The notes below the pieces were generated by a model that made no database searches, had not been told where the DNA came from, and worked only from the letters and a program-made list of their open reading frames with translations. From assembly GCA_000004695.1 (NCBI GenBank), contig CM000151.3, forward strand, positions 8,032,001-8,096,000: 64,000 nucleotides of DNA, given 5' to 3'. The position numbers and the translations under genes were made by a program. The DNA is from Dictyostelium discoideum (Eukaryota). Positions 31,803 through 58,286 of the stretch are shown piece by piece; position 1 is the first letter of the stretch; each line of letters opens with the position of its first letter.

Positions 31803-33279
31803 AATTTTTAAATATTTTATTAATTGTATGTTTCAAAAAATATTTATTGAAAAAAAAAGGAAAAAACAAATAAAAATAAAATTTAAAAAAATAAAATAAG
31901 TGGGAGAGAAAGAAAAGAGAACAAAAATAAACACCAAAAAAAAAAAAAAAAAAAAAAAAAACCTCTTTTCAATTAATTGGATTTTTATGCATTTCTACAT
32001 ATGTACCCTTTCAAAGTGTAAGTTATTTATAATAATTACCATTAAAAAAAATTTGACTGATAAAAATTAATATATATTTTTTTTTTTTTTGGTTAAATTT
32101 TAATTTTAATTTAATAAATAATAATGGAACATCGAAAATCAAAAGAGTAAATTTTTGAATTTTTGAATTATTTAATATTTATTTTTATTTTTATTTATTT
32201 TTTTTTTTCCTTTAATTTTTTTTCCTTTGTTTTTATGTATATTTACAAAAAAAAAAATATTAATAAAAAAAAAAAAGAAAAAAAAACCATTGATTAAAGA
32301 AATAGATAAATTATTATAATTATTATTTGATTGTATTGTATTATATTGATTATTGTTAAATAAGTACATACAATCACCAACATACACACAAAAAAAAAAA
32401 AAAAAAAAAAAAACCAACTCCACCACTTCAAAGGGGTACTAACCACTAAGCATACTGAGAAATAGAGAGAGAAATAGAGAGAAAAAGAGATACACACACA
32501 AACAACATAGATACTCACTCACACACACACACACGTTGACACACACTCACTCGCTCTCATATTATTTTTTCATTTAATAAAAACAGATACTCTCCCGTAC
32601 ACACGGACACACTCGCACACACACATTTTTATTTTTTAATAAAATTGAAAAAATATACATGTTCTCCTTTTCATTTCATATTTGTAAAAATTATTATTAT
32701 TATCATTATTATCATTATTATCATTATTAATTTTTATTTAAATAAATACATCCACCACCTATATAATTTATATAATTTTAGTATGAAATTATTCCAATAA
32801 TATTTTTTTTTTATTTATAGCTGATTGTAGAAGAGATGATATCAAAAATAGAAACAAACAAACAATAAAAAATAGTAATTTTTTTTTTTTTTTATTTTTG
32901 GTTTTTATTATTTTTTAATTATTATTTAAATTATTATTTTTTTTATTTATTTTTTTCTTTTTTTAATTAAAATAATTTTTTTAATTTTTTTAATCAAATA
33001 CTAATTTATCTATTATATAAACTTTTTTTTTTTTTTTTTTTATTATTTGACATTCATTTAATTTAATCCAGTTTTTTTAAAATCTTGTTATAAATTAAAC
33101 CTTTTTTTTTGAAATAAAAAAAAAATAAAAAAAAAAAAAAGTTAAAATTTGTAAGTAATAGAATTTTTTTCATTTATTTATAATTTTTTTATAATTTTTT
33201 TTTTTTTTTTATTTATTATTAAAAAATAATAAATTTCATGTTCAAAATCTATTTATGTAATTAAAATTATAATTTTCAT

Positions 33280-40807: not shown

Positions 40808-41989
40808 ATAAATTTCTAAATATAATAATGTTGTTAATTAAGAGGTCTGTCTAACGAAAAAATCATTTAATTTAATTTTATTACAATACCTTTAATCTTG
40901 TCACAATAATTTGAAACTGATTCATTTAATCTTGATGAGTTTTCATATAAATTATTAAACTCTTTTTTTAATAGTACATAATTTGGATCCATTATAAGTT
41001 TTTTTTTTAAAGTGGGTCTGAAAATTGACACATGATTTTTTTTTTCCAATCTTTCTACTATTTTAAAAAAAAAAAAAAAAAAAAAACTTAGAACGATTTT
41101 TATTTTTTATTTATAATTAAAAGATATATTCCCTCTCGTTGTTCCTCAAAATAAAAAAACCAATTACAAAAAATGGATGGTAAATAAAATTTTAAAATTA
41201 AAATTTTTGATAAAAAAAAAAAAAAAAAAAAAGAATGGTTTTAAAAAATTTTTTTTTAATTCTTTTTTTAATTCTTTTATTTTTTTAAAAACTTATATTA
41301 AGGAACATCAAAAAAAAAAAAAAAAAGTTAAAAAACAATTTTAATGCTTTTTTTTTAAAAAAATAAAAAAAAAAAATTAAAAAAAGAATTTTCTTTCTCA
41401 AAATAAATTCTTATTAATTAAATTAGTTATGTTTTTTTTTTTTATTGGATTGTTTGATTAGATTTTTTTTTTTTTTTTTACATTTGAATAATTTGATGCA
41501 TGTGGGTATTTTTTATTTACATTTTCTATTGGGAAATTATTTATTTGATTTGTAATATCATTCAACTGAACATTAAAAAAAAAAAAAAAAAAAAAATGAA
41601 AATAATACTTTAGTTTATCAATAAAAAAAATAAATAAAACTTCAATAAAAATAAAAATAAAAAATAAAAATATAAAATAAAAAAAAACATACTTTTTTTT
41701 TATATCTAATATCACTTTGGCGTCTCTATTTTTGTATACTTAATTCATATTAAAATCATTGTTAAAAAAAAAAAAAAAATCAAAAAAAATCAAGAAAAAT
41801 CAAAAAAATAAAATGAAAAAAAATAATACTTTAGTTTATCAATAAAAAAAATTAATTTATTAAATAATACAACATTAACCAATAAAAACAAAAAAAACAT
41901 ACAATTTTTTTTCTTTAGTTTTATTTTTTTTTATTTTTTTTTTTTTTTATTTTTTTTTTTTTTACTTAAACCTGGGAGATGACCAAAAA

Positions 41990-43570
41990 AGGAAAAAAAC
42001 AATTAATTTAAAAAAAAACCGTATTATGAGCATAGTGCAATATAAAGTTGCAGAATAGCTAAAATTCTATTTGACCAAAAATTTTGGAAACGATATGAGG
42101 TGTTAATTTAATTTTATTATCCCTATTTTTTAATTTTGGAGATTTGTTTTTCTATTTTTTTTAATTAATAAAAAAATAAAAAAAAAATATATAACAAACT
42201 TTTACCCGTAGTAGGCCGCTGACCGCTAGCTGGTGGTAGATGGTCCTTTTCAAACTCATGTTGGGAATTATAAAAATATAAAAAAAAAATATAAAAACCA
42301 AAAAGATTTTTTTTTTTTTTTTTTTTTTAATACAATTAATATGGCCCTTAATTTAATTTTATTTTCCCTATTAGGAGATTTAATTTTTCTAATAAAAAAA
42401 ATTTTAAAAAAAAATATAATAAATCAAACCTATGTTTCGGAATTATAAAAATAAAAAAAAAATAAAAACTAAATTGATTATTTTTTTTTTTTTAACTAAT
42501 TTCTATTTAAAAGGTTTTTTTTTTTTTTATTTTTTGGATTATTATTTATTTTAACTTATATATATATAGAATAAATAATACTTTTAATTAATTAGATGGA
42601 TAAAATTAAAAATAATAATGAAAGTAATAATTTTAAATATTGTAAAGATTATAATATAAAAGAATTATTATTAAAAAGATTAAAATTAGATATCAACACA
42701 AAAATTCAAACTTTGGATGATATCTCAAAAATTCTTATTGTGTTTTCAAGGAAAATACCCTTTGATAGTTCTGATTTATTATTAAATGGATTTAAACCAC
42801 CTTTTTCAGTTGAAAATATTATAAAAAGAGTTTTAATTGATAAATTTGGTAATTATTATTATATAATTATTGTTTTTTAATTGTTTTCTAACTTTTTAAT
42901 TTAAAAAATTTAAAGGTAGTTATTGTATAAATTTAAATATTTTATTTGGATTATTTTTATGTGAAATGGGTATTGATGTTAAATTGATAAAAGGTATTGA
43001 AGGATCAACTTTATTCCAAAATCCATGGTTTCAAAAACATCATAGTAATATTATAAATTGGGAGAATAAATTATATTACCTTGATGTTGGATTTGGTTGT
43101 ATTACACCATTTAAACCACTTGAATTATTAAATGAAGAAACCATTAAAAATTATAATGAAAATGAAAATAAAAATGAAATTACTAATACTGTATATAGAG
43201 TTAGAAAATTAAAAAATGATGATGATAATGATGAATATTTATATGAAGAAAAAATAATTGATAAAACAAAACCTCAAAATCAATTATTTAGTCCAGTTTT
43301 TCATTTTAATTTATCACCTGCGACATATGAAATAATTGAATACAGTATTGAACAATATTCAAAATTTGATGTTGATAAAGTACTTTTATTTAAATTATTT
43401 AAAAAAGGAGGTTACCATTTATTTAAAGATAAACTAATAATTAGTTATTATGATGACAAAAATAACAATCAAATTAAAGAAATTAATGATAATATTACAT
43501 TTAATAATTATTATAAAACATTATTTTATAAAAAAAATAAAAATATTTTTATAAAAATTTATTAATTTAA
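41990..43570. repeat. Tandem duplication unit 1 of the NAT locus. It includes two copies of a roughly 150-nt upstream element.
   Basis: The element ttaatttaattttattttccctattaggagatttgtttttctaat....atgtttcggaattataaa occurs at about 42090-42310 (with a GC-rich 50-nt insert) and at 42340-42480. It occurs once more at 44280-44440 in unit 2. Confidence 0.6.
42596..43565 (+). CDS. Arylamine N-acetyltransferase (NAT) family protein, copy 1. Structure is join(42596..42848,42916..43565), 300 aa.
   Basis: Exon 1 ends DKFG in phase 1 before GTAATT. A 67-nt intron follows. Exon 2 begins GSYCINLNILFGLFLCEMGIDVKL, the NAT catalytic-Cys region (RGG-x-C-x-x-N), and continues with the WENKLYYLDVGFG block. 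Confidence 0.65.
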
Positions 43571-44149
43571 TTAAAATTACAAATATTTATTTTTACTATT
43601 AGAAAAAAAAAATCTAACCAAACTATCTGTTGTGCTCAAAAAAGCGAATTTATATTTCGATATTTTTTGGGATCTAAAATGAAAAAAAAGTATTTTTTTT
43701 TTTTGGTCACCTTGGTTGGAAATAATTTCTCTGGCGGTTTTCGTGTTTTATTTTTATTTTTTTTTTTTTTTTCACACTTAATTTTTTTACTTTCATTTTT
43801 TATTTATTTTCTGTAATTAATTATACATTTTATTTAAAAAAAGAGATTGAAAAAAGATAGAAAAAAAAAAAAAAAAGAGAAATTAAATGTGATCATTTAT
43901 TAGTTAAACATAAAAAGATTTTTCAATTATATTATATAATATATTATAATTAATTAAACCTATAAAGATTTTTGATTATATAATATTATATTTTACAATT
44001 AAAAAAAAAAAATTAAAATATACTTTCATTAACCAATAAAAATAAAAATAAAAAAAACATACTTTTATTTTTTTATTTTTTTTTTTTTATATTTTTTATT
44101 ATATTTTTTTTTATATTTTTTTTTTTATTTTTTTTTTATTAACACACAC

Positions 44150-45560
44150 ATATAAAAGTAAAGGGAACCTGTGACCAAAAAAGAAAATTACATTATTAAG
44201 AGAAAACGACTTGTATTATGAGCATTAAGTATAAGAAAGCTAAAAATTTTATTTTGACCAAAAATTTTTTTTTTAATTCCCAAAAACAATATGGTGTGTT
44301 AATTAAATTTTATTTTCCCTATTAGGAGATTTGTTTTTTCTAATATAAAAAATTTTAAAAAAAATAACAAATCAAACTTATGTTTCGGAATTATAAATAT
44401 AAAAATAAAAAAATAAAAACCAAATTGATTTTTTTTTTTTTTTTTTTTTTAATAACTAATTTCTATTTAGGTTTTTTTTTTTTTTTTTTTTTTTTGGATG
44501 ATTATTTATTTTAACTTATATATATAGAATAAATAATACTTTTAATTAATTAGATGGATAAAATTAAAAATAATAATGAAAGTAATAATTTTAAATATTG
44601 TAAAGATTATAATATAAAAGAATTATTATTAAAAAGATTAAAATTAGATATCAACACAAAAATTCAAACTTTGGATGATATCTCAAAAATTCATATTGTA
44701 TTTTCAAGGAAAATACCCTTTGATAATTCTGATTTATTAATAAATGGATTTAAACCACCTTTTTCAGTTGAAAATATTATAAAAAGAGTTTTAATTGATA
44801 AATTTGGTAATTATTATTATTAAATTACTATTTTTTTAAAAAAGTAAACAATTATTTTCTAAATTTTAATTTAAAAAAAAATAAAAAAATAAAATAAAAT
44901 TAAAAGGTAGTTATTGTACAAATTTAAATATTTTATTTGGATTATTTTTATGTGAAATGGGTATTGATGTTAGATTGATAAAAGGTATTGAAGGATCAAC
45001 ATTATTAAAAAGTCCATGGTTTCACAACCATTTTAGTAATATTATATATTGGGAGAATAAATTATATTACCTTGATGTTGGATTTGGTTGTATTACACCA
45101 TTTAAACCACTTGAATTATTAAATGAAGAAACTATTAAAAATTATAATGAAAATGAAAATAAAAATGAAATTAATAAAACTGTATATAGAGTTAGAAAAT
45201 TAAAAAATGATGATGATGATGATGAATATTTATATGAAGAAAAATTTATTGATAAAATCAAACCTCAAAATCCATTATTTAGTCCAGTTTTTCATTTTAA
45301 TTTATCACCTGTTACATATGAAATAATTGAATATAGAGTTGAACCATATTCAAAATTTGATGTTGATAAAGTAATTTTAATTAAATTATTTAAAAAAGGA
45401 AGTTACCATTTATTTAAAGATAAACTAATAATTGATTATTATGATAATAATAAAAATCAAATTAAAGAAATTAACGATAATATTACATTTAATAATTATT
45501 ATAAAACATTATTTTATAAAAAAAATAAAAGTATTTTTATAAAAATTTATTAATTTAATT
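44150..45560. repeat. Tandem duplication unit 2 of the NAT locus
   Basis: Collinear with unit 1: upstream element, two-exon NAT gene, then the shared 3' flank ttaatttaattaaaattacaaatat. Confidence 0.6.
44554..45553 (+). CDS. Arylamine N-acetyltransferase family protein, copy 2 (tandem paralog). Structure is join(44554..44806,44907..45553), 299 aa.
   Basis: About 90 percent identical to copy 1 at the protein level. Same intron position (44807..44906). Confidence 0.65.
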
Positions 45561-45666
45561 AAAATTACAAATATATATTTTTACTATTATTATTGTTATT
45601 GTTATTATTATTATTATTATTTTTTTTTTTTTTTTTTTTTTTTTTTATTATTATTATTTTTTAAAA

Positions 45667-47208
45667 TTAATTTTGAATTATTTCTTCATCATTATCTTTA
45701 AATGGTTCATAATTATTATTTTCATTATCTTCATTATTAAATTCATTATAATCTGAAGAATTTATACCTTGATTTTCAATTAATGGTTTTAATAAATTTG
45801 AATATTGAGGATTTTCAATAGTTTCTTCACAATCATCAGATTGTTTAAAACTTCTACCAGTGATTTTTGCTAAGATGTTTCTAAAGATTGTACCCCAATT
45901 TTCACGAAGTAATTGATATAAAATGATAGAGACAAAAGTGGAAACACCAATTGCATCAATTTTAATTTTACCCCATTCAACATTTACACTAATCATACCA
46001 GTACCTAAAACAATTGAAATACCGGCAGTTAAAAGATTTCTTGGTTTTGAAAAATCAACTTGAGAATTAATCCAAAGTTTTGCACCAGTTATAGCAGTGA
46101 TACCAAATAAAACAATTGATAAACCACCGAAAATACCTGGAGGTATAGTTTGAACGATTGCGCCGAAAATTGGTAAACATCCCAACACAATTGCGATACA
46201 TGCAGCAAATACGAATGAAAGGGTTGAGAAAATCTTTGTTATACTCATTACACCAATGTTTTCAGCGTAGGTTGTTGTACCAGAACTACCAAAGAATCCG
46301 GCTAAAATACATGCCAATGCATCACCTATAAAAGTTCTACCCAATAAATTATCCATACTATATTCAGTCATTGATGAAACCGCTTTTAAGTGACCAATAT
46401 TCTCTGCAGCTAAAATTACGGCAACAGGTGCAATCATTGAAATGTAAGTTGAATCGAATGATGGTAAATGAGTTTGTGGTAAACCAATCCATTTTGCATC
46501 ACTTACTACACTAAAATCAATACCTGGTCCAACACCTCCCAATCCACATAATAAATAAACTACATATGATACAACCCCACCAATTAAAATGGGTAATCTT
46601 TTCAAAGGGCCAGGTGCATAACATGTAATCATCACTACCAAAAGTATGGTTAATGCAGCCATCCATGCATCAAATCCTGTGGTTGCAGCTTGACCAACTG
46701 CTGAATTTGCTAAATGGAGACCAATGGAAACGATAACGGATCCAGTTACAACGGGTGGTGTTAAAAATTCAATCCATGCATGACCTGCAACCATTACAAG
46801 CAATCCAATGGCTAAATAAATAAATCCACAAACTACAATACCACCTGCTGCTGGAGAAATGTTTGGATTCGTTGTACCAGGTGAATAAATATATCCAGTG
46901 GCTGAATTAACAACTCCAATGAATGCAAAAGATGATCCTAAATATGACGGTACCTTACCTCCAGTGCATACATAGAATATCAATGTACCAACACCAGAGA
47001 AAAATAATGCTGAATTTGTACTAAATCCCATCAATAATGGGCATAAAATATTACCTCCAAACATTGCTAAAATATGTTGAAATGATAAAAAAAATGATGG
47101 TATAATTGGTATTCTTTCATCTGGCATAATAGGTATATCACTAGTATTTTTTAATTTATATTTTGGAAAATAATCCAAAATCATTATTTTTATATTTTCC
47201 CACATCAT
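45667..47208 (-). CDS. Nucleobase:cation symporter-2 (NCS2) family permease of the uracil/xanthine permease type, 513 aa, no intron
   Basis: FQHILAMFGGNILCPLLMG signature (compare UraA QHLFAMFGATVLVP). There are multiple Gly-rich TM segments. The ORF is continuous. Confidence 0.7.
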   Translation of the reverse strand: MMWENIKIMILDYFPKYKLKNTSDIPIMPDERIPIIPSFFLSFQHILAMFGGNILCPLLMGFSTNSALFFSGVGTLIFYVCTGGKVPSYLGSSFAFIGVVNSATGYIYSPGTTNPNISPAAGGIVVCGFIYLAIGLLVMVAGHAWIEFLTPPVVTGSVIVSIGLHLANSAVGQAATTGFDAWMAALTILLVVMITCYAPGPLKRLPILIGGVVSYVVYLLCGLGGVGPGIDFSVVSDAKWIGLPQTHLPSFDSTYISMIAPVAVILAAENIGHLKAVSSMTEYSMDNLLGRTFIGDALACILAGFFGSSGTTTYAENIGVMSITKIFSTLSFVFAACIAIVLGCLPIFGAIVQTIPPGIFGGLSIVLFGITAITGAKLWINSQVDFSKPRNLLTAGISIVLGTGMISVNVEWGKIKIDAIGVSTFVSIILYQLLRENWGTIFRNILAKITGRSFKQSDDCEETIENPQYSNLLKPLIENQGINSSDYNEFNNEDNENNNYEPFKDNDEEIIQN

Positions 47209-52398: not shown

Positions 52399-52435
52399 TC
52401 GATCCCTTGACCCAAAGTTTTATTTTTAAAAAAAG

Positions 52436-52506
52436 TGCCGCGACCTGGAATCGAACCAGGGTCAACAGAGCCACAATCTGATGTACTACCACTATACTAT
52501 CACGGC
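52436..52506 (-). tRNA. tRNA-His (GTG)
   Basis: The minus-strand sequence is GCCGTGATAGTATAGTGGTAGTACATCAGATTGTGGCTCTGTTGACCCTGGTTCGATTCCAGGTCGCGGCA. Acceptor stem GCCGTGA/TCGCGGC. D-loop AGTGGTAG. Anticodon loop TTGTGGC with CAGA/TCTG stem. B-box GGTTCGATTCC. Confidence 0.85.
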
Positions 52507-53296: not shown

Positions 53297-53368
53297 AAGC
53301 AATCAAATGGTTTAATGGTTGATGAGACTACCCTTTGATAGAGGGTCGGGGGATCGAATCCCTTTTGG
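53297..53368 (+). other. tRNA-like remnant. It has a canonical anticodon arm (ACCCT-TTGATAG-AGGGT, anticodon GAT) and a T-loop-like GGGGGATCGAATCCC, but the acceptor and T stems do not fold. A second B-box-like GAGTTCGAAGCC lies on the minus strand at 53406-53418.
   Basis: Manual folding only. Not a convincing functional tRNA. Confidence 0.3.
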
Positions 53369-53621
53369 TAATTTTTGAAAAATTAAAAAAAAAATTTTTA
53401 AAAAATTTATCCGTTAAATAACGGCTTCGAACTCAGGACCTCGCTTTTAAAGCCATTAAAAAGGTAATTTTAAAGGTAATTTTAACGGCGTTCTAAAGAC
53501 CCCCTAAAAATTACCTTTAAAATTACCTTTAAAATTTTTTTAATTCAGGACTTTAAAGCAAATTTAAATTTAATTTAAAGCGAATTTAAAGGTGGTTTTT
53601 TCTTCGCTGTGATATAAATTC

Positions 53622-54803
53622 ATGATCAATATCCCAGATGAGATATCCAACAACTTGAAAGCAGAATTGGAAATCCATTTACAAGGAGATGATAAGATAA
53701 TAACAAGTAAGAATAAATTCAAAATCCTCACGGACTGCAGAACTCAAGTAATCAAGTACTCTAACGTTTTCAACGGAGTACTAAAAGGAGTTCACAGAGC
53801 AATAATAAAACCAAAAAAGATCTTCAAAACATTCAACTGGGAAAAATCAATGGACATAGTAGAAAAAACATTGCATGAAGAAGGACTGGAAATAATCAAA
53901 TTAGATAATTTAGGTGAAAACCTGATAATACACTCATTCAACTCAATTATCAGTCCAGAGCACAAAGACCAGCTAATACATTGTAAACACATAACAATAC
54001 TATTCCTCACTACAACAGAAGAAACAAAAAATCAAAGAAAAACAAATAGGGAAATCGAAGACGAAATCTCAGAAAACTCAAAAATCACGGAACTACCAAA
54101 TTCCGAGACAAAGGAAAACACAAGAATAAACATAAAATCAAAAGAAGAATTCAATCATAAAAACACTAGCGAATCAAAAAATAACAACAAAAACAAAATA
54201 GAAAACAAAAAAGAAAATAATAAAGAAATCAATAATGAAAACATCAAAGACAAGAGCAAAAACGAAAAAGTAAAGGAAAAAGAAATTGAAAATAAAAAAC
54301 CCACAACAATTAGAGCAACAACAACAACCACAACGACAGAAACGACAAATACAATAAACAATATTGAAAAGAGAAAAGTACTTCGTATCCCACCAATAAC
54401 AGTAACATATAGTGTTGACAGCAAAGAGAAAAGGAGAATGGAGTTAACTGAAGATGAAGAAGCATTAGAAGTGGTAAGAAAGATGTTCGAAAATGAAGAA
54501 GAGAACAGAATTTTTGAAGAAAAAATAAATAACCAAAAAAAGAAGGAAACCCCAAGGTTAGCCTCAATCAAAAAAAGACAAACAATGTCACCTATCCAAA
54601 ATTCAGAATCTCCAGCAACGCCAGAGATAGTAAAAAGAAAAAGATTCAACTCATCTCCAAACCCAACAACTAATCACCAAGAAATTTTAACACCTTACAA
54701 AACTCCAATTAAAATAACAAAGGAAGAATCAGATTTAATGGAAGCAGCACTAAGAGACAAATTGCCCAAAGTACTCCAAGACGTACTTCCATCTGTCTCA
54801 TTT

Positions 54804-54809
<6 letters not shown>
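53622..54809 (+). CDS. Retrotransposon ORF1 protein, 395 aa, basic and Lys/Asn-rich
   Basis: Continuous ORF directly upstream of the ORF2 endonuclease. Ends 44 nt before the ORF2 ATG. Confidence 0.6.
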
Positions 54810-54853
<44 letters not shown>

Positions 54854-54856
<3 letters not shown>

Positions 54857-57802
54857 ATAAAAATAATGACCTGGAATTGCCAAGGTTGCTCAACAATCAA
54901 AAGCATGAATCAGACAAAAAATACAATTAACCTAATAAAACCTGATATATCAATACTAACAGAAACAAATCTAAAAAAGGATCAAAATCTAGCGCAAATC
55001 AAAAACCATTACTCAACAGGAGGAAAAGGAAAAGAAGCAAGAGGAAAAGGAGTAATGGCAATAAATCACCTAGAACAAATAGAAATTAAAAACTTGGAAG
55101 AAAAAGAAGGCAGAATCTTAAAATTTACTGCAATTCTAAACAATACGGAAATCAACATAATTGGCATCTATGCACCAGCCTCATATGACAGAAGAAAAGG
55201 ATGGTTTTCAAACAATATTTCCCTTGGAGATCTAGAACAGGCAGACATAGTTACTGGTGACTTTAACATCAACAAATATGCAAAAATCAAGTTCAAAGAT
55301 GGATCATCCGATAAGAGAAAATTCACAGAAAATGAAACAATAGAATTCCTAATGATGGAAGTAGGACTCACCGAAATACTACCAAATTCAACAACTAAAA
55401 CAACCTTCAAAGATAAACTAATCGATAGAACATTCTTATCAACAAAGATGCACCAACTCAATCACTCGTACAAGATAATAGATAAAATAAACAAATCAGA
55501 CCATAACATAGTAGTGATGGATTTCAAAATACCAAATTTCACAAAAATATACAAATCACCCCTATGGAAAATGAACTCAATAATAATTAAAGAAGATAAA
55601 ACAATAAAAAAGATAGAAAAAATAATCGACCACTACCAGGAAACCAAAAGAAAAAACCTTAACATAACGGAATACTGGATTAAGTTCAAAAAAAAAATAA
55701 AAAAACAATGCATTACAACAGAAAAGAAAAGAATACTAGAGAGAAAAAAAACGCTATCAAATCTAGCAAATGAACACACAAAAACAAAAAACAAATATGA
55801 AAAAGAAACAATATCGAACGAAATAACAATACTTCAAGAAGAAGAAAGAATAGACAGAATGATCAAAAGCTCAATCAACTACATCAACAATAAAGAAATA
55901 GCATCAAATCTCCTTACATCTATTCTTAAAAAAAGAGACTCGAGCTCCCAGATTCACAGAATAAAGAACCCATCCAATGGAGAAATCGAAACAGAACAAA
56001 AAGAAATAACAGATTGCTTCAGAAAATATTACGAGACACTCTTCAAAGAGAAAGAATGCGACCAAGAAACACATACAGAACTTCTAAGCACCTGGAACCC
56101 ACCAATAGATAAAAAAAAATTAACAGAGATGGAAGACAGAATCGAAGAATATGAGGTTAAGCTAGCAATAGAAAAGATAGCAGAAGGTAAATCACCAGGA
56201 GAAGATGGAATAACATCTTCATTCTATAAAATCCACCAACACAAACTAATTCCAATCCTCACAGAACTATTCAACTTCTTTTTAAACAATGAAATTCCAA
56301 CAGAATTCAAGAACGGTATCCTTACATCAATATACAAAGGTAAAGGGGATGTCTTGGAAATCTCAAACAGAAGACCAATAACGTTACTCAACGTAGACTA
56401 CAAAATCTACTCAAAAATAATCAACAATAGAATACTAAAAATCCTGCCAAACATAATCTCAAAGTACCAGAACGGTTTTATACCAGGAAGGCTACTCCAC
56501 AACAACATTATAGCTTTGGATTTAGCAATGGAAAAGAGTGATAGAAACACGATAATCACCTTTTATGACTTCGAAAAAGCCTTCGATTCAATATCTCATA
56601 AAGCGTTAATAAGGACTCTAAACCATCTAAAGTTCCCTCGGAAAATAACAAACACAATACTAAGCATGTTAACGAACACCAACATAAGGGTCATGGTAAA
56701 TGGACAACTCTCTGAATCCTTCAGAGCAGGAAGAGGTACAAAACAGGGCGACCCAATTTCACCAACTCTCTTCGCTATAGTATGTGAATGCTTATCAACA
56801 TCAATAAGAAAAGACAATACCATAATAGGCATAAAACTCAATCAGAACAATTCGATGAAGATTGGACAATATGCAGACGACACAGTCACACTAGCCAGTA
56901 ACATAGATGACGCAGATAAAATGGATATGAAAGTTATAAAATTTTGCCAAGCCACAGCAGCAAAAATAAACGATAATAAATGTGTGTGCATCACTAAAAA
57001 CCCAAAGATAAAGACCAAATATAAGACAATTGGGGCGAAAGAAGAAGAAAGATATCTTGGCTTTTTCTTCAACCGCAAAGGTGTAATAAGCAAAGTAGAT
57101 GATACGGTGAACAAACTGGAAAACCTCACAAAATGCTATTCGAGCGTGTCATCAACGCTAAAAGGTAGAATCACAATCCTCAAATCATACCTGCTGTCCC
57201 AACTAACATTCCAACTATACATCAACGAAATAAATGACATAAAGAAACTGGAGAACGTTAATGCCAACATGTTATTCAAAGGGGACAGGTGGGCTATCTC
57301 AAAAGAAAGGAGCAGAAGAGACTATGAAATTGGAGGCCTGGAACTCTGGAATATGGCAACCAGATCCAATGCCCAGAAAGCATGGATATACGAACAATAC
57401 CTCAGAGAAAAAGACGACCAGAACTGCCCTCCACATATGGAAGTCTGGAAGTCGGAAAAAGAAAACTCACTATCAAGGATTCACATCAAATGCTGGAAAG
57501 CCTGGAAGTTGTTGCACCACCCAAGAGAGCGAATAACTCTCAAACTAAACCAAGTCAAACCCAAATATGAAAACAAACAAAAATTAAAAGTAATCTATAG
57601 AAACATGATGGATATCAAATACAAGGGATGGAACAAACACCAGCCAACAACAGGTCAAAAACTGATTCAAAAGAACATTAATCACCCAATTCTACCATTT
57701 AGAGAAGCCAGATCAATCACAACTATCAAAGGAAGAGACTTAGCATGGAGGTATCTACTCAAGGCACTTCCAAAACACCATGGGGAGAATTGCCACTTGT
57801 AA
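54854..57802 (+). CDS. Retrotransposon ORF2: apurinic-endonuclease-like domain plus reverse transcriptase
   Basis: MIKIMTWNCQGC...ILTETNL is EEP-nuclease-like. RT motifs KGKGDV..RPITLLN, FYDFEKAFDSISH and QYADD are present. Confidence 0.8.
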
Positions 57803-58281
57803 AGAAGAAGAGTCGTCTATGCACATCTTCTTCGAATGCAAATCAATAAAACAGGATATCGACTCAATCTATCAAAAGGTCTGTAAAGACTCTAACAACA
57901 CTTACCACGGTCCATGGAGCGAAAAAGTTCTCGGAAAACTACTCACACCATTCTCATCAAATCTGATAGGAGCCATTATGGAATCGATATGGTACAGAAG
58001 AAATCAAATAAAATTCAACGATAACACTACAATAATAACAGAGAACCAAATAATTCATAAAATCAAAAAAGCGAGAGATGCCGAATGGGATAGAACAAGA
58101 AAGATAGTAGAAAAGCAACTACGTCAAGAACTAAAATGCACTGATAACCGAGAGTCAATCAATCGGACCGCATCAATAAAAAGAAGACTCGAAAAATTCA
58201 GCCACAACTGGAACTCGAAACTCATGACCATAAACATCCCGGAACACTTCATACCATACTGCTCATATAACACCAACTACT

Positions 58282-58286
<5 letters not shown>
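57780..58286 (+). CDS. ORF2 C-terminal Cys/His (zinc-knuckle-like) domain in a shifted frame relative to the RT. This is either a frameshifted or a programmed-shift tail.
   Basis: C-x8-H-x4-C...C spacing (CKEEESSMHIFFECKSIKQDIDSIYQKVC). It overlaps the ORF2 stop by 23 nt in a different frame. Confidence 0.5.

Follow-up and report, generated by a model that had tools for sequence, protein, structure and literature searches.

A tandem pair of arylamine N-acetyltransferase genes with a repeated promoter module and a GC-rich insert in Dictyostelium discoideum AX4

Described relatives and the layout of the locus

The locus analyzed here has already been annotated (DDB_G0277549 / (DICDI)NAT6; UniProt D8FSX1 and Q54ZL1), as a gene for a single fused protein of 487 amino acids (aa); the 90%-identity protein cluster of D8FSX1 includes the DDB_G0277549 product, from chromosome 2 of Dictyostelium discoideum AX4. 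Orthologues of the arylamine N-acetyltransferase (NAT) encoded there are present in D. citrinum (KAN0036436.1), D. dimigraforme (KAN0035... / P0003), and D. firmibasis and, like the AX4 genes, adjoin a xanthine/uracil permease gene. Outside the dictyostelids, (BACCR)NAT3 (PDB 4dmo) and the NAT of Bacillus anthracis (PDB 3lnb) belong to the same fold family as the amoeba proteins (PF00797). The catalytic Cys and His of 4dmo fall in the same alignment columns as those of the amoeba NATs, while 4dmo has EVGFG where the amoeba proteins carry the canonical Asp in DVGFG. The Bacillus cereus-group NATs differ from the amoeba pair in being intronless bacterial genes, with identities of only about 25 to 30%.

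The window (i.e., the whole stretch of 64,000 nt that was analyzed) is part of D. discoideum AX4 chromosome 2 and contains two intact NAT genes, NAT-a (300 aa) and NAT-b (299 aa). A sequence-only reading of the window had described them as tandem paralogs with about 90% identity and an identical intron position. Both points were confirmed: 270 of 300 residues (90%) are identical between the two proteins, and both introns split the same Gly codon in phase 1, just N-terminal of the catalytic Cys. The orthologues of D. citrinum and D. dimigraforme, which are 66 to 70% identical to NAT-a in BLASTP local alignments, have an intron at this same position. Against the Pfam profile PF00797 (Acetyltransf_2; curated cut-off, 22.8 bits), NAT-a and NAT-b scored 62.7 and 67.3 bits, respectively, with coverage of profile positions 1 to 220/221 of 240 in each copy. 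The catalytic triad (Cys88, His126, and Asp141) is invariant in NAT-a, NAT-b, and their orthologues, and the His-to-Asp spacing is 15 residues, as usual. Given that the open frame and the Cys-His-Asp triad have been kept in both copies, both probably encode enzymes, predicted to be acetyl-CoA-dependent arylamine N-acetyltransferases.

Each gene lies with its flanks in one unit of a head-to-tail repeat that is 90% identical across 1.3 kb (Table 1). Self-BLAST paired positions 41823-42332 with 43980-44454 and positions 42319-43601 with 44265-45589 (90.3% identity), and the homology between the units stops at 43601/45589. Neither unit 1 nor the related loci showed a counterpart of the spacer between the units, and searches for this spacer in other genomes returned low-complexity noise. 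The distal upstream block of copy a has its copy-b counterpart at about 44165-44274, and it is also found 5' of the single NAT gene of strain ACTFIR.

Table 1. Features of the NAT locus (positions are numbered from the first nucleotide of the window).
Feature	Positions	Strand	Remarks
Duplicated unit 1	41823-43601	+	Upstream block, two promoter modules, and NAT-a; delimited by self-BLAST
Distal upstream block, copy a	41975-42085	+	GATGACCAAAAAAGG ... GTATTATGAGCAT ... GCTAAAATTCTATTTGACCAAAAATTTT
Promoter module a	42086-42306	+	221 nt (170 nt without the insert); followed by T-run 42307-42328
Insertion in module a relative to modules b and c	42199-42249	+	51 nt; GC-rich core 42205-42246 (CCCGTAGTAGGCCGCTGACCGCTAGCTGGTGGTAGATGGTCC)
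Promoter module b	42329-42478	+	150 nt; followed by T-run 42479-42493
NAT-a exon 1	42596-42848	+	Codons 1-84 plus 1 nt; GT donor next, at 42849
NAT-a intron	42849-42915	+	67 nt; GT..AG; phase 1
NAT-a exon 2	42916-43565	+	Includes the stop codon; holds Cys88, His126, and Asp141
Inter-unit spacer	43602-43979	.	378 nt between units 1 and 2
Duplicated unit 2	43980-45589	+	Upstream block, one promoter module, and NAT-b; delimited by self-BLAST
Promoter module c	44275-44428	+	154 nt, before NAT-b; T-runs at 44265-44274 and 44429-44450
NAT-b exon 1	44554-44806	+	99% identical to NAT-a exon 1
NAT-b intron	44807-44906	+	100 nt; position and phase as in the NAT-a intron
NAT-b exon 2	44907-45553	+	Includes the stop codon

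One fused gene or two separate genes

Where the databases give (DICDI)NAT6 as one protein of 487 aa, the sequence and the orthologues favor two genes. Residues 1 to 239 of D8FSX1 are 100% identical to NAT-a, and residues 240 to 478 correspond to NAT-b except for one residue at a splice junction. The fused model is the current one in GenBank and UniProt (EAL68737.1 and CBL43361.1), and an independent annotation of strain ACTFIT also joins the two units, into a protein of 538 aa. If this model were right, the stretch between the copies would be a long intron of one gene, whose product would have two NAT domains. We consider this very unlikely. The 1,174-nt "intron" that the model requires (43380-44553) holds a copy of the duplicated promoter block, and a second "intron" of only 28 nt (45371-45398) is also needed. 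The model further drops the C-terminal 61 residues of copy a, a segment conserved in the single-copy orthologues, and it truncates the best-matching NAT domain of the fused protein, that of the copy-b half, at profile position 155 of 240. In contrast, each unit taken alone yields a full NAT domain (Pfam positions 1 to 220 of 240) and can be aligned from one end to the other with orthologues encoded by single genes (295 and 285 aa). In every related species with an intact gene, that gene stands alone and encodes 285 to 381 aa with one NAT domain. On the basis of these comparisons, we judge the fused 487-aa model to be wrong, i.e., an artefact of gene prediction. A search for the gene identifiers in papers and their supplements found nothing.

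With two genes at this locus, the NAT family of D. discoideum probably numbers seven genes instead of six, and expression or knockout work on "NAT6" must allow for two near-identical copies.

Duplication, divergence, and the question of bacterial origin

A single NAT gene lies beside the permease gene in D. citrinum, D. dimigraforme, D. firmibasis, and strains ACTFIZ and ACTFIR, and strain ACTFIY has only a NAT remnant at the syntenic site. Among the genomes examined, two copies were found only in AX4 and strain ACTFIT. Given that five relatives are single copy and that a sixth has a remnant, the duplication appears to be recent and specific to the AX4 lineage. We therefore regard it as likely that the locus arose by a recent, AX4-lineage-specific tandem duplication in which one NAT gene already resident in Dictyostelium was copied along with its promoter. 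The related loci indicate that the ancestral state would have been one NAT gene, interrupted by one intron and encoding about 290 aa, arranged tail to tail with the xanthine/uracil permease gene. The repeat structure and the synteny suggest that a segment of about 1.6 to 1.8 kb was then copied head to tail in the AX4 lineage. Copying in this orientation would have supplied both copies with a promoter, a start codon, an intron, and a stop codon of their own. These findings leave the understanding of NATs and of gene duplication unchanged, and the three points that they add are modest.

The p-distance between copies a and b was 5.3%, and each copy differed from the ACTFIR gene by 4.3 to 4.6%. 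Because the three genes are about equidistant, the duplication could also predate the split from ACTFIR, with a subsequent loss in that strain. Between NAT-a and NAT-b, dS was 0.057 and dN/dS was 0.77, whereas dN/dS between the D. citrinum and D. dimigraforme orthologues was 0.20; the orthologues are thus under stronger purifying selection than the AX4 pair. Judged from these ratios, NAT-a and NAT-b are evolving under relaxed constraint, and the value of 0.77 would also be compatible with one copy drifting toward loss of function. In NAT-b exon 2, three clustered differences separate AX4 from ACTFIT, and the ACTFIT base is the NAT-a base at each of them; from this pattern, gene conversion between NAT-a and NAT-b seems to be occurring. 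Across the species complex, the NAT locus has been duplicated (AX4), frameshifted (one lineage), and nearly deleted (another). Inside one species complex, a gene of xenobiotic metabolism has thus been gained and lost rapidly.

Bacterial acquisition had also been raised for these genes. The relatives nearest to them outside the dictyostelids are indeed NATs of the Bacillus cereus group, with profile E values near 1e-56 among the best 120 matches, and no eukaryote outside Dictyostelia was among these 120. Among solved structures, the best matches were likewise Bacillus NATs (1.5e-19 and 2e-15), compared with 2e-5 for human NAT1. The exhaustive search agreed on the Bacillus affinity with a rough tree, which was built without support values and without other eukaryotic NATs. 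As a recent transfer, the proposal does not stand, and we hold it to be extremely improbable. NAT multigene families occur in Dictyostelium, Polysphondylium, Heterostelium, Cavenderia, and Tieghemostelium (i.e., every dictyostelid group sampled), and their identity to the Bacillus proteins is low. The genes themselves are AT-rich and host-like (about 17% GC), they contain a conserved spliceosomal intron, and the pair was made by local duplication. For these reasons, any transfer would have been an ancient one, no younger than the root of Dictyostelia. An ancient bacterial transfer of the dictyostelid NATs fits the Bacillus affinity, which lends that part of the proposal some support. That dictyostelid NATs resemble Bacillus NATs more closely than they do other eukaryotic NATs makes a proper phylogeny worthwhile.

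The upstream module and the GC-rich insert

The sequence-only reading had noted an upstream module of roughly 150 nt, present twice before the first gene and once before the second, and all three copies (modules a, b, and c) were located as described. They share about 89% pairwise identity, are all about equally diverged, and each have a T-run on the 3' side. Given this equal divergence, the gene duplication and the module duplication could have occurred in either order. The segment that was doubled is flanked by similar ACCAAA..T-run stretches. We suppose that the promoter already held the module between these stretches and that the module was doubled before copy a, for which unequal crossing-over or replication slippage between these T-runs would be the simplest route.

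The AT-rich promoters of AX4 and ACTFIR were compared by a custom affine-gap alignment. The ACTFIR promoter lacks the module and is otherwise alignable with that of AX4, and the single-copy loci of D. citrinum, D. dimigraforme, and D. firmibasis have neither the module nor the GC-rich insert. The absence in ACTFIR would be expected if the module were not ordinary promoter DNA but a small mobile or retroposed element inserted into a T/A-run; bracketed by T-runs, it reads on the opposite strand as an element plus an A-tail within an A-run. A deletion in ACTFIR would also account for the absence, and T-runs are found everywhere in this genome, so that the flanks of the module weigh little as evidence. 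In addition, no terminal inverted repeats were seen, and neither the 64-kb window nor about 130 kb of related loci contained a further copy. Searches for the module in other genomes returned nothing but low-complexity noise. We consider a mobile origin unlikely and treat the module as part of the promoter.

Module a differs from modules b and c by an insertion with a GC-rich core. A GC-rich insert had been placed at 42205-42255 and called wholly atypical for this genome. The insert itself is real, since it is identical in an independent assembly (L003), and its composition is as unusual as claimed: 27 of the 42 nucleotides of the core (64%) are G or C, and the flanks have about 15 to 16% GC. 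Only its end had been set a few bases too far, as the core ends at 42246. In about 194 kb of Dictyostelium DNA, the only non-coding DNA at this GC level was a tRNA-His gene, and tRNA-like sequences beside a retrotransposon approached it. Within the window and the fetched loci, the insert occurs only once. No further copy was found in the window when three mismatches were allowed, and short-word BLAST against the window (including its retrotransposon) and eight loci gave no match. It was absent from every other species and lineage examined and thus shows no conservation. By inspection, neither the insert nor the module has inverted termini or a clear target duplication, and other copies of either were lacking in the window and the eight loci.

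In the AT-rich Dictyostelium genome, intergenic GC-rich islands are typical of non-coding RNA genes (PMC7919456). Class I RNA genes and other DUSE-dependent non-coding RNA genes resemble the insert in being short GC-rich islands (about 40 to 65 nt) within strongly AT-rich DNA between genes, and a T-run often follows them (PMC7919456, PMC3188802). The insert, which is as GC-rich as the tRNA-His gene and lies in flanks of 15% GC, is likewise followed by TTTT (42247-42250) and might be a small non-coding RNA gene, e.g., an RNA polymerase III transcript ending at that TTTT. The sequence features expected of such a gene were missing. Unlike those genes, it has no exact DUSE ([AT]CCCA[AT]AA) about 63 nt upstream on either strand, no terminal stem, and no conservation; the conserved motif of Class I RNAs (CCTTACAG/CTTACAGC) does not occur in its sequence. 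The exact DUSE matches closest to the insert were at 43665-43672(-) and 44278-44285(+), with none near 42140 or 42310, and the window as a whole contained 13 such matches, compared with 21 expected by chance. Rfam reported no family at gathering thresholds, nor at E values up to 10 when the 86-nt island was searched alone. Folding of both strands was no better than that of shuffled controls (z, -0.49 to +1.8), and ARAGORN found no tRNA at the insert. The suggestion that the insert derives from a small RNA or a transposon end thus gained no support in any test run (Rfam, ARAGORN, folding, DUSE, and copy searches), and we consider a small RNA gene very doubtful.

Other RNA candidates were set aside as well. 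A tRNA gene or tRNA-derived element was rejected because no tool reports a tRNA there (the only tRNA called in the window by ARAGORN and Rfam was the tRNA-His at 52435-52506), and a resemblance to a tRNA D-arm (TAGCTGGTGGTAGA) was supported by no tool. As a box C/D snoRNA, the insert has a CUGA but is missing the C box.

The composition of the insert is foreign to the locus, and one reverse-strand frame is open, in which 10 of the 13 third-codon positions are G or C (TIYHQLAVSGLLR), like the coding DNA of a GC-richer organism. These features would suit a fragment captured at a break, whether of foreign DNA (e.g., that of bacterial prey or of a symbiont) or of a GC-richer part of the Dictyostelium genome (e.g., rDNA or a transposon). 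The collections searched gave no match that would point to such a source. No exact 20- to 26-mer of the insert occurred in 185,579 bacterial and archaeal genomes, JGI metagenomes, or viral contigs, and a codon-wobble-tolerant pattern for the open reverse frame retrieved nothing from the metagenomes or viral contigs. BLASTN gave no match in E. coli genomes and only chance-level matches in plasmids. The retrotransposon of the window and the fetched loci gave no match, and a full-text search of the literature for this sequence was negative. We regard capture from one of these sources as possible but not probable.

Our best guess, held with low confidence, is that the insert is filler DNA captured during break repair. 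This reading rests on negative results, with no donor found, and neither a target-site duplication nor microhomology was present to tell by which mechanism the break was repaired. In the order of events that we propose, one of the two modules before copy a would have gained its 51 nt of foreign-looking, GC-rich DNA after the module had been doubled. No evidence suggests a function for the insert. We see a slim chance that the core is not inert, i.e., that with it the promoter of one NAT paralog has gained a newborn regulatory element or gene for a small RNA, or else that it is a tiny bacterial fragment from prey or a symbiont that became fixed in the nuclear genome. In the case of a prey or symbiont fragment, the insert would be a rarely seen trace left by a bacterivore that still captures DNA on a micro scale.

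Gene structure of the NAT6 locus

The window is extremely AT-rich (per-kb GC, 14 to 39%). A protein search assigned it to D. discoideum: the first NAT copy matched the N-terminal part of D8FSX1 (UniProt; "Arylamine N-acetyltransferase 6") at 100% identity, and the product of DDB_G0277549 (AX4 chromosome 2) belongs to the same protein cluster. D. discoideum NAT1 to NAT6 are already included in NAT nomenclature surveys (PMC11213898). Reading of 41500-46200 with splicing at canonical GT..AG sites yielded two genes, NAT-a (upstream) and NAT-b (downstream), the proteins of which share 270 of 300 positions (90%). Each gene has a single intron, which splits the same Gly codon just 5' of the catalytic Cys; the sequence-only reading, which had described paralogs of about 90% identity with a common intron position, was accurate in this respect. 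Both proteins matched Pfam PF00797 (63 to 67 bits; cut-off, 22.8) over profile positions 1 to 220 of 240. Cys88, His126, and Asp141 showed no variation between the copies or among the orthologues, and His and Asp are the usual 15 residues apart.

In the databases (GenBank and UniProt), the locus is modeled as one protein of 487 aa, and the automated annotation of the ACTFIT genome gives 538 aa. In the 487-aa model, NAT-a residue 239 (..FDVDK) is followed directly by the start codon of NAT-b, and nine out-of-frame residues are appended after NAT-b residue 239; these joins require two "introns," and an entire promoter-block copy lies within the first. The model also omits about 60 residues at the C terminus (KLFKKGxYHLFKDKLII...NITFNNY...), though they are conserved in orthologues, and the best-matching NAT domain of the fused protein (the copy-b half) ends at profile position 155 of 240. 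Furthermore, a separate, single-domain NAT gene occupies the equivalent position in each related species (D. citrinum, 295 aa; D. dimigraforme, 285 aa; D. firmibasis, 310 aa), and the intron position recurs in the D. citrinum and D. dimigraforme genes. On the basis of the required introns, the lost C terminus, the cut domain, and the single-domain genes of relatives, we conclude that the locus most probably contains two genes, not one. The fusion of two genes in the reference model is a point beyond the existing annotation.

The adjacent xanthine/uracil permease ORF encodes 513 aa from the first ATG, in agreement with the AX4 annotation. Newer strain annotations place the start 8 codons later (505 aa), and an exact look-up matched the 505-aa form only.

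Features of the NAT6 locus, its surroundings, and related loci (window coordinates unless a locus is named)
Feature	Position	Strand	Remarks
GC-rich island	32583-32625		ACAGATACTCTCCCGTACACACGGACACACTCGCACACACACA
Duplicated unit 1	about 41823-43601		self-comparison
Duplicated unit 2	about 43980-45589		self-comparison
Module a	42086-42306		alignment, motif search
Extra bases in module a	42199-42249		51 nt
Core of insert	42205-42246		CCCGTAGTAGGCCGCTGACCGCTAGCTGGTGGTAGATGGTCC
Module b	42329-42478		alignment, motif search
Module c	44275-44428		alignment, motif search
NAT-a exons	42596-42848, 42916-43565		300 aa, GT..AG
NAT-b exons	44554-44806, 44907-45553		299 aa, GT..AG
"Intron" 1 of 487-aa model	43380-44553		1,174 nt
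"Intron" 2 of 487-aa model	45371-45398		28 nt
DUSE-like octamer	43665-43672	-	in spacer
DUSE-like octamer	44278-44285	+	in copy-b promoter
AX4/ACTFIT patch	44151-44305		155 nt, 5' of NAT-b
Permease ORF	45667-47208	-
tRNA-His (GTG)	52435-52506	-	syntenic position conserved in related genomes
GC islands	53317-53450		GGATCGAATCC, GAGTTCGAAGC
Non-LTR retrotransposon	53622-58286	+	ORF1, 53622-54809; ORF2, 54854-57802
ACTFIR NAT gene	L004 7621-8585
ACTFIY NAT remnant	L006 9600-9888		residues 201-300
D. dimigraforme DNA with called gene	L002 8871-9693		209 aa

Tandem duplication, decay in sister lineages, and the upstream module

The two duplicated units are 90% identical across the gene-containing 1.3 kb; searching did not trace the source of the 378-nt spacer between them. 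The syntenic region was fetched from seven other genomes by means of NAT6-cluster and neighboring permease-cluster proteins. Beside the permease gene, one NAT copy was present in D. citrinum, D. dimigraforme, D. firmibasis, and "D. cf. discoideum" ACTFIZ, and two were present in D. discoideum ACTFIT, as in AX4 itself. The single copy of the divergent "D. discoideum" ACTFIR has a frame broken by 1-nt and 7-nt deletions, while only a remnant (the last third of the gene) is left in "D. cf. discoideum" ACTFIY. These two sister lineages show a NAT gene in decay at this locus. The ACTFIY remnant adjoins unrelated genes, one with a transglutaminase-core domain, and a called gene just 5' of the D. dimigraforme NAT gene has unusually GC-rich, transposon-like coding sequence.

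The nucleotide p-distance between NAT-a and NAT-b (5.3%) is close to that between each copy and the ACTFIR gene (4.3 to 4.6%), which dates the duplication to about the time when those lineages split. The dN/dS ratio was 0.77 for NAT-a versus NAT-b (dS, 0.057) and 0.20 for the D. citrinum and D. dimigraforme orthologues, indicating relaxed constraint in the AX4 lineage; such relaxation fits the decay in the sister lineages.

AX4 and ACTFIT (GCA_054883475.1) were 99.6% identical over 8.3 kb. Within 41300-45700 they differed at 31 sites, 20 of which fell in one patch 5' of NAT-b. Three more clustered in NAT-b exon 2 (45247, 45273, and 45345), and at all three the ACTFIT base is the NAT-a base. 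This distribution suggests that the repeats have undergone gene conversion.

Alignment of the three upstream stretches, together with motif searches, delimited a module of about 150 nt (start, AAACAATATGG..TTAATTTAATTTTATTTTCCCTATTAGGAGATTT; end, ATGTTTCGGAATTATAAA..AAAACCAAATTGA). As the sequence-only reading had it, two copies (a and b) precede NAT-a and one (c) precedes NAT-b; motif searches found no others in the window. The copies are about 89% identical pairwise, with a T-run directly 3' of each. Similar "ACCAAA..T-run" stretches flank them; for example, GACCAAAAATTTT precedes modules a and c, while every module is followed by AACCAAA(TT/AA)GA plus the T-run. Two modules before NAT-a would be produced most simply by slippage or unequal crossing-over between such stretches. 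The distal block and the copy-a proximal promoter both align with the ACTFIR promoter, from which the module is missing altogether; hence, the module either arose in the AX4 lineage ahead of the gene duplication or disappeared from ACTFIR. Overall, both the recent tandem duplication and the small promoter duplication are unremarkable, and the gene family and the locus were already known.

Ancestry of the NAT family

Bacterial acquisition had been suspected for these genes. The tandem pair is a local duplication, not an acquisition; for the family, the suspicion may hold. In an exhaustive HMMER search with a NAT6-orthologue profile, run on 1.84 billion cluster representatives, the seventeen best matches were all dictyostelid (Dictyostelium, Polysphondylium, Cavenderia, and Heterostelium), a Tieghemostelium protein ranked a little lower, and the first named match outside the dictyostelids was a Bacillus thuringiensis NAT (8e-13). 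A broader dictyostelid profile matched Bacillus cereus-group NATs at about 1e-56, with no nondictyostelid eukaryote among its 120 best matches. Among solved structures, Bacillus NATs (4dmo, 1.5e-19; 3lnb, 2e-15) preceded mycobacterial NATs (about 1e-6) and human NAT1 (about 2e-5). Phylogeny agrees to the extent that a rough neighbor-joining tree, built without other eukaryotic NATs and without support values, grouped dictyostelid with Bacillales NATs. Given these search, structure, and tree results, all members of the family may trace back to an ancient Bacillales-like transfer. Such a transfer would have been followed by residence in Dictyostelia long enough for spread to all groups, expansion, intron gain, and adoption of host composition.

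The GC-rich insert and the tRNA neighborhood

The core of the insert in module a has 27 of 42 G+C, compared with 15 to 16% GC in its flanks. In a scan of about 194 kb of Dictyostelium DNA (the window and seven related loci), 40-nt windows with at least 55% GC fell into four classes: coding sequence, the tRNA-His gene, tRNA-like sequences adjacent to a retrotransposon, and the insert. Because the insert is base-for-base identical in the independent ACTFIT assembly (L003), it is not an assembly artefact, and the earlier observation of an atypical GC-rich insert in one NAT-a module is confirmed. Elsewhere in the window, an isolated CA/GC-rich island lies amid AT-rich DNA.

A small-RNA or transposon-end origin, also raised from the sequence, gained no support from any search. 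Rfam gave no match at gathering thresholds, at E values up to 10 over 3.1 kb, or with 86 nt alone; ARAGORN called no tRNA there; and the fold of either strand was no better than that of shuffled controls. DUSE ([AT]CCCA[AT]AA), a Dictyostelium noncoding-RNA promoter element, is normally located about 63 nt 5' of the RNA (PMC3188802; PMC7919456). It was absent from both strands at the right distance from the insert, the insert lacked the Class I RNA motif, and its termini had no inverted repeats or clear target-site duplication. Exact DUSE-like octamers (TCCCAAAA) do occur in the spacer and the copy-b promoter, with no GC-rich RNA-like sequence found about 63 nt beyond either; such octamers are fewer in the whole window than predicted by chance.

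No other match to the insert was found in the fetched loci or in the window, its retrotransposon (53.6-58.3 kb) included. Exact 20- to 26-mer scans of one genome per bacterial or archaeal species, JGI metagenomes, and viral contigs returned nothing, and BLASTN gave no match in E. coli genomes and only chance-level matches in plasmids. One reverse frame is open and G/C-rich at third-codon positions, and a wobble-tolerant pattern for it had no match. An internal donor (rDNA, another transposon, or another chromosome) is possible, since the D. discoideum DNA searched was that of the window and fetched loci. Our working explanation, held with low confidence, is that the insert would be filler DNA captured in break repair, with no demonstrated function. 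This unique 42-nt GC-rich insert without traceable origin is likewise an addition to the existing annotation.

Apart from the tRNA-His gene, no RNA gene was found in the window. About 0.8 kb from it lies the retrotransposon, which has a strongly A-rich coding strand and a reverse-transcriptase domain in ORF2. A pair of short GC islands whose sequence resembles the tRNA B box, called by neither ARAGORN nor Rfam, stands just before it. The retrotransposon looks like one of Dictyostelium's tRNA-targeting elements.
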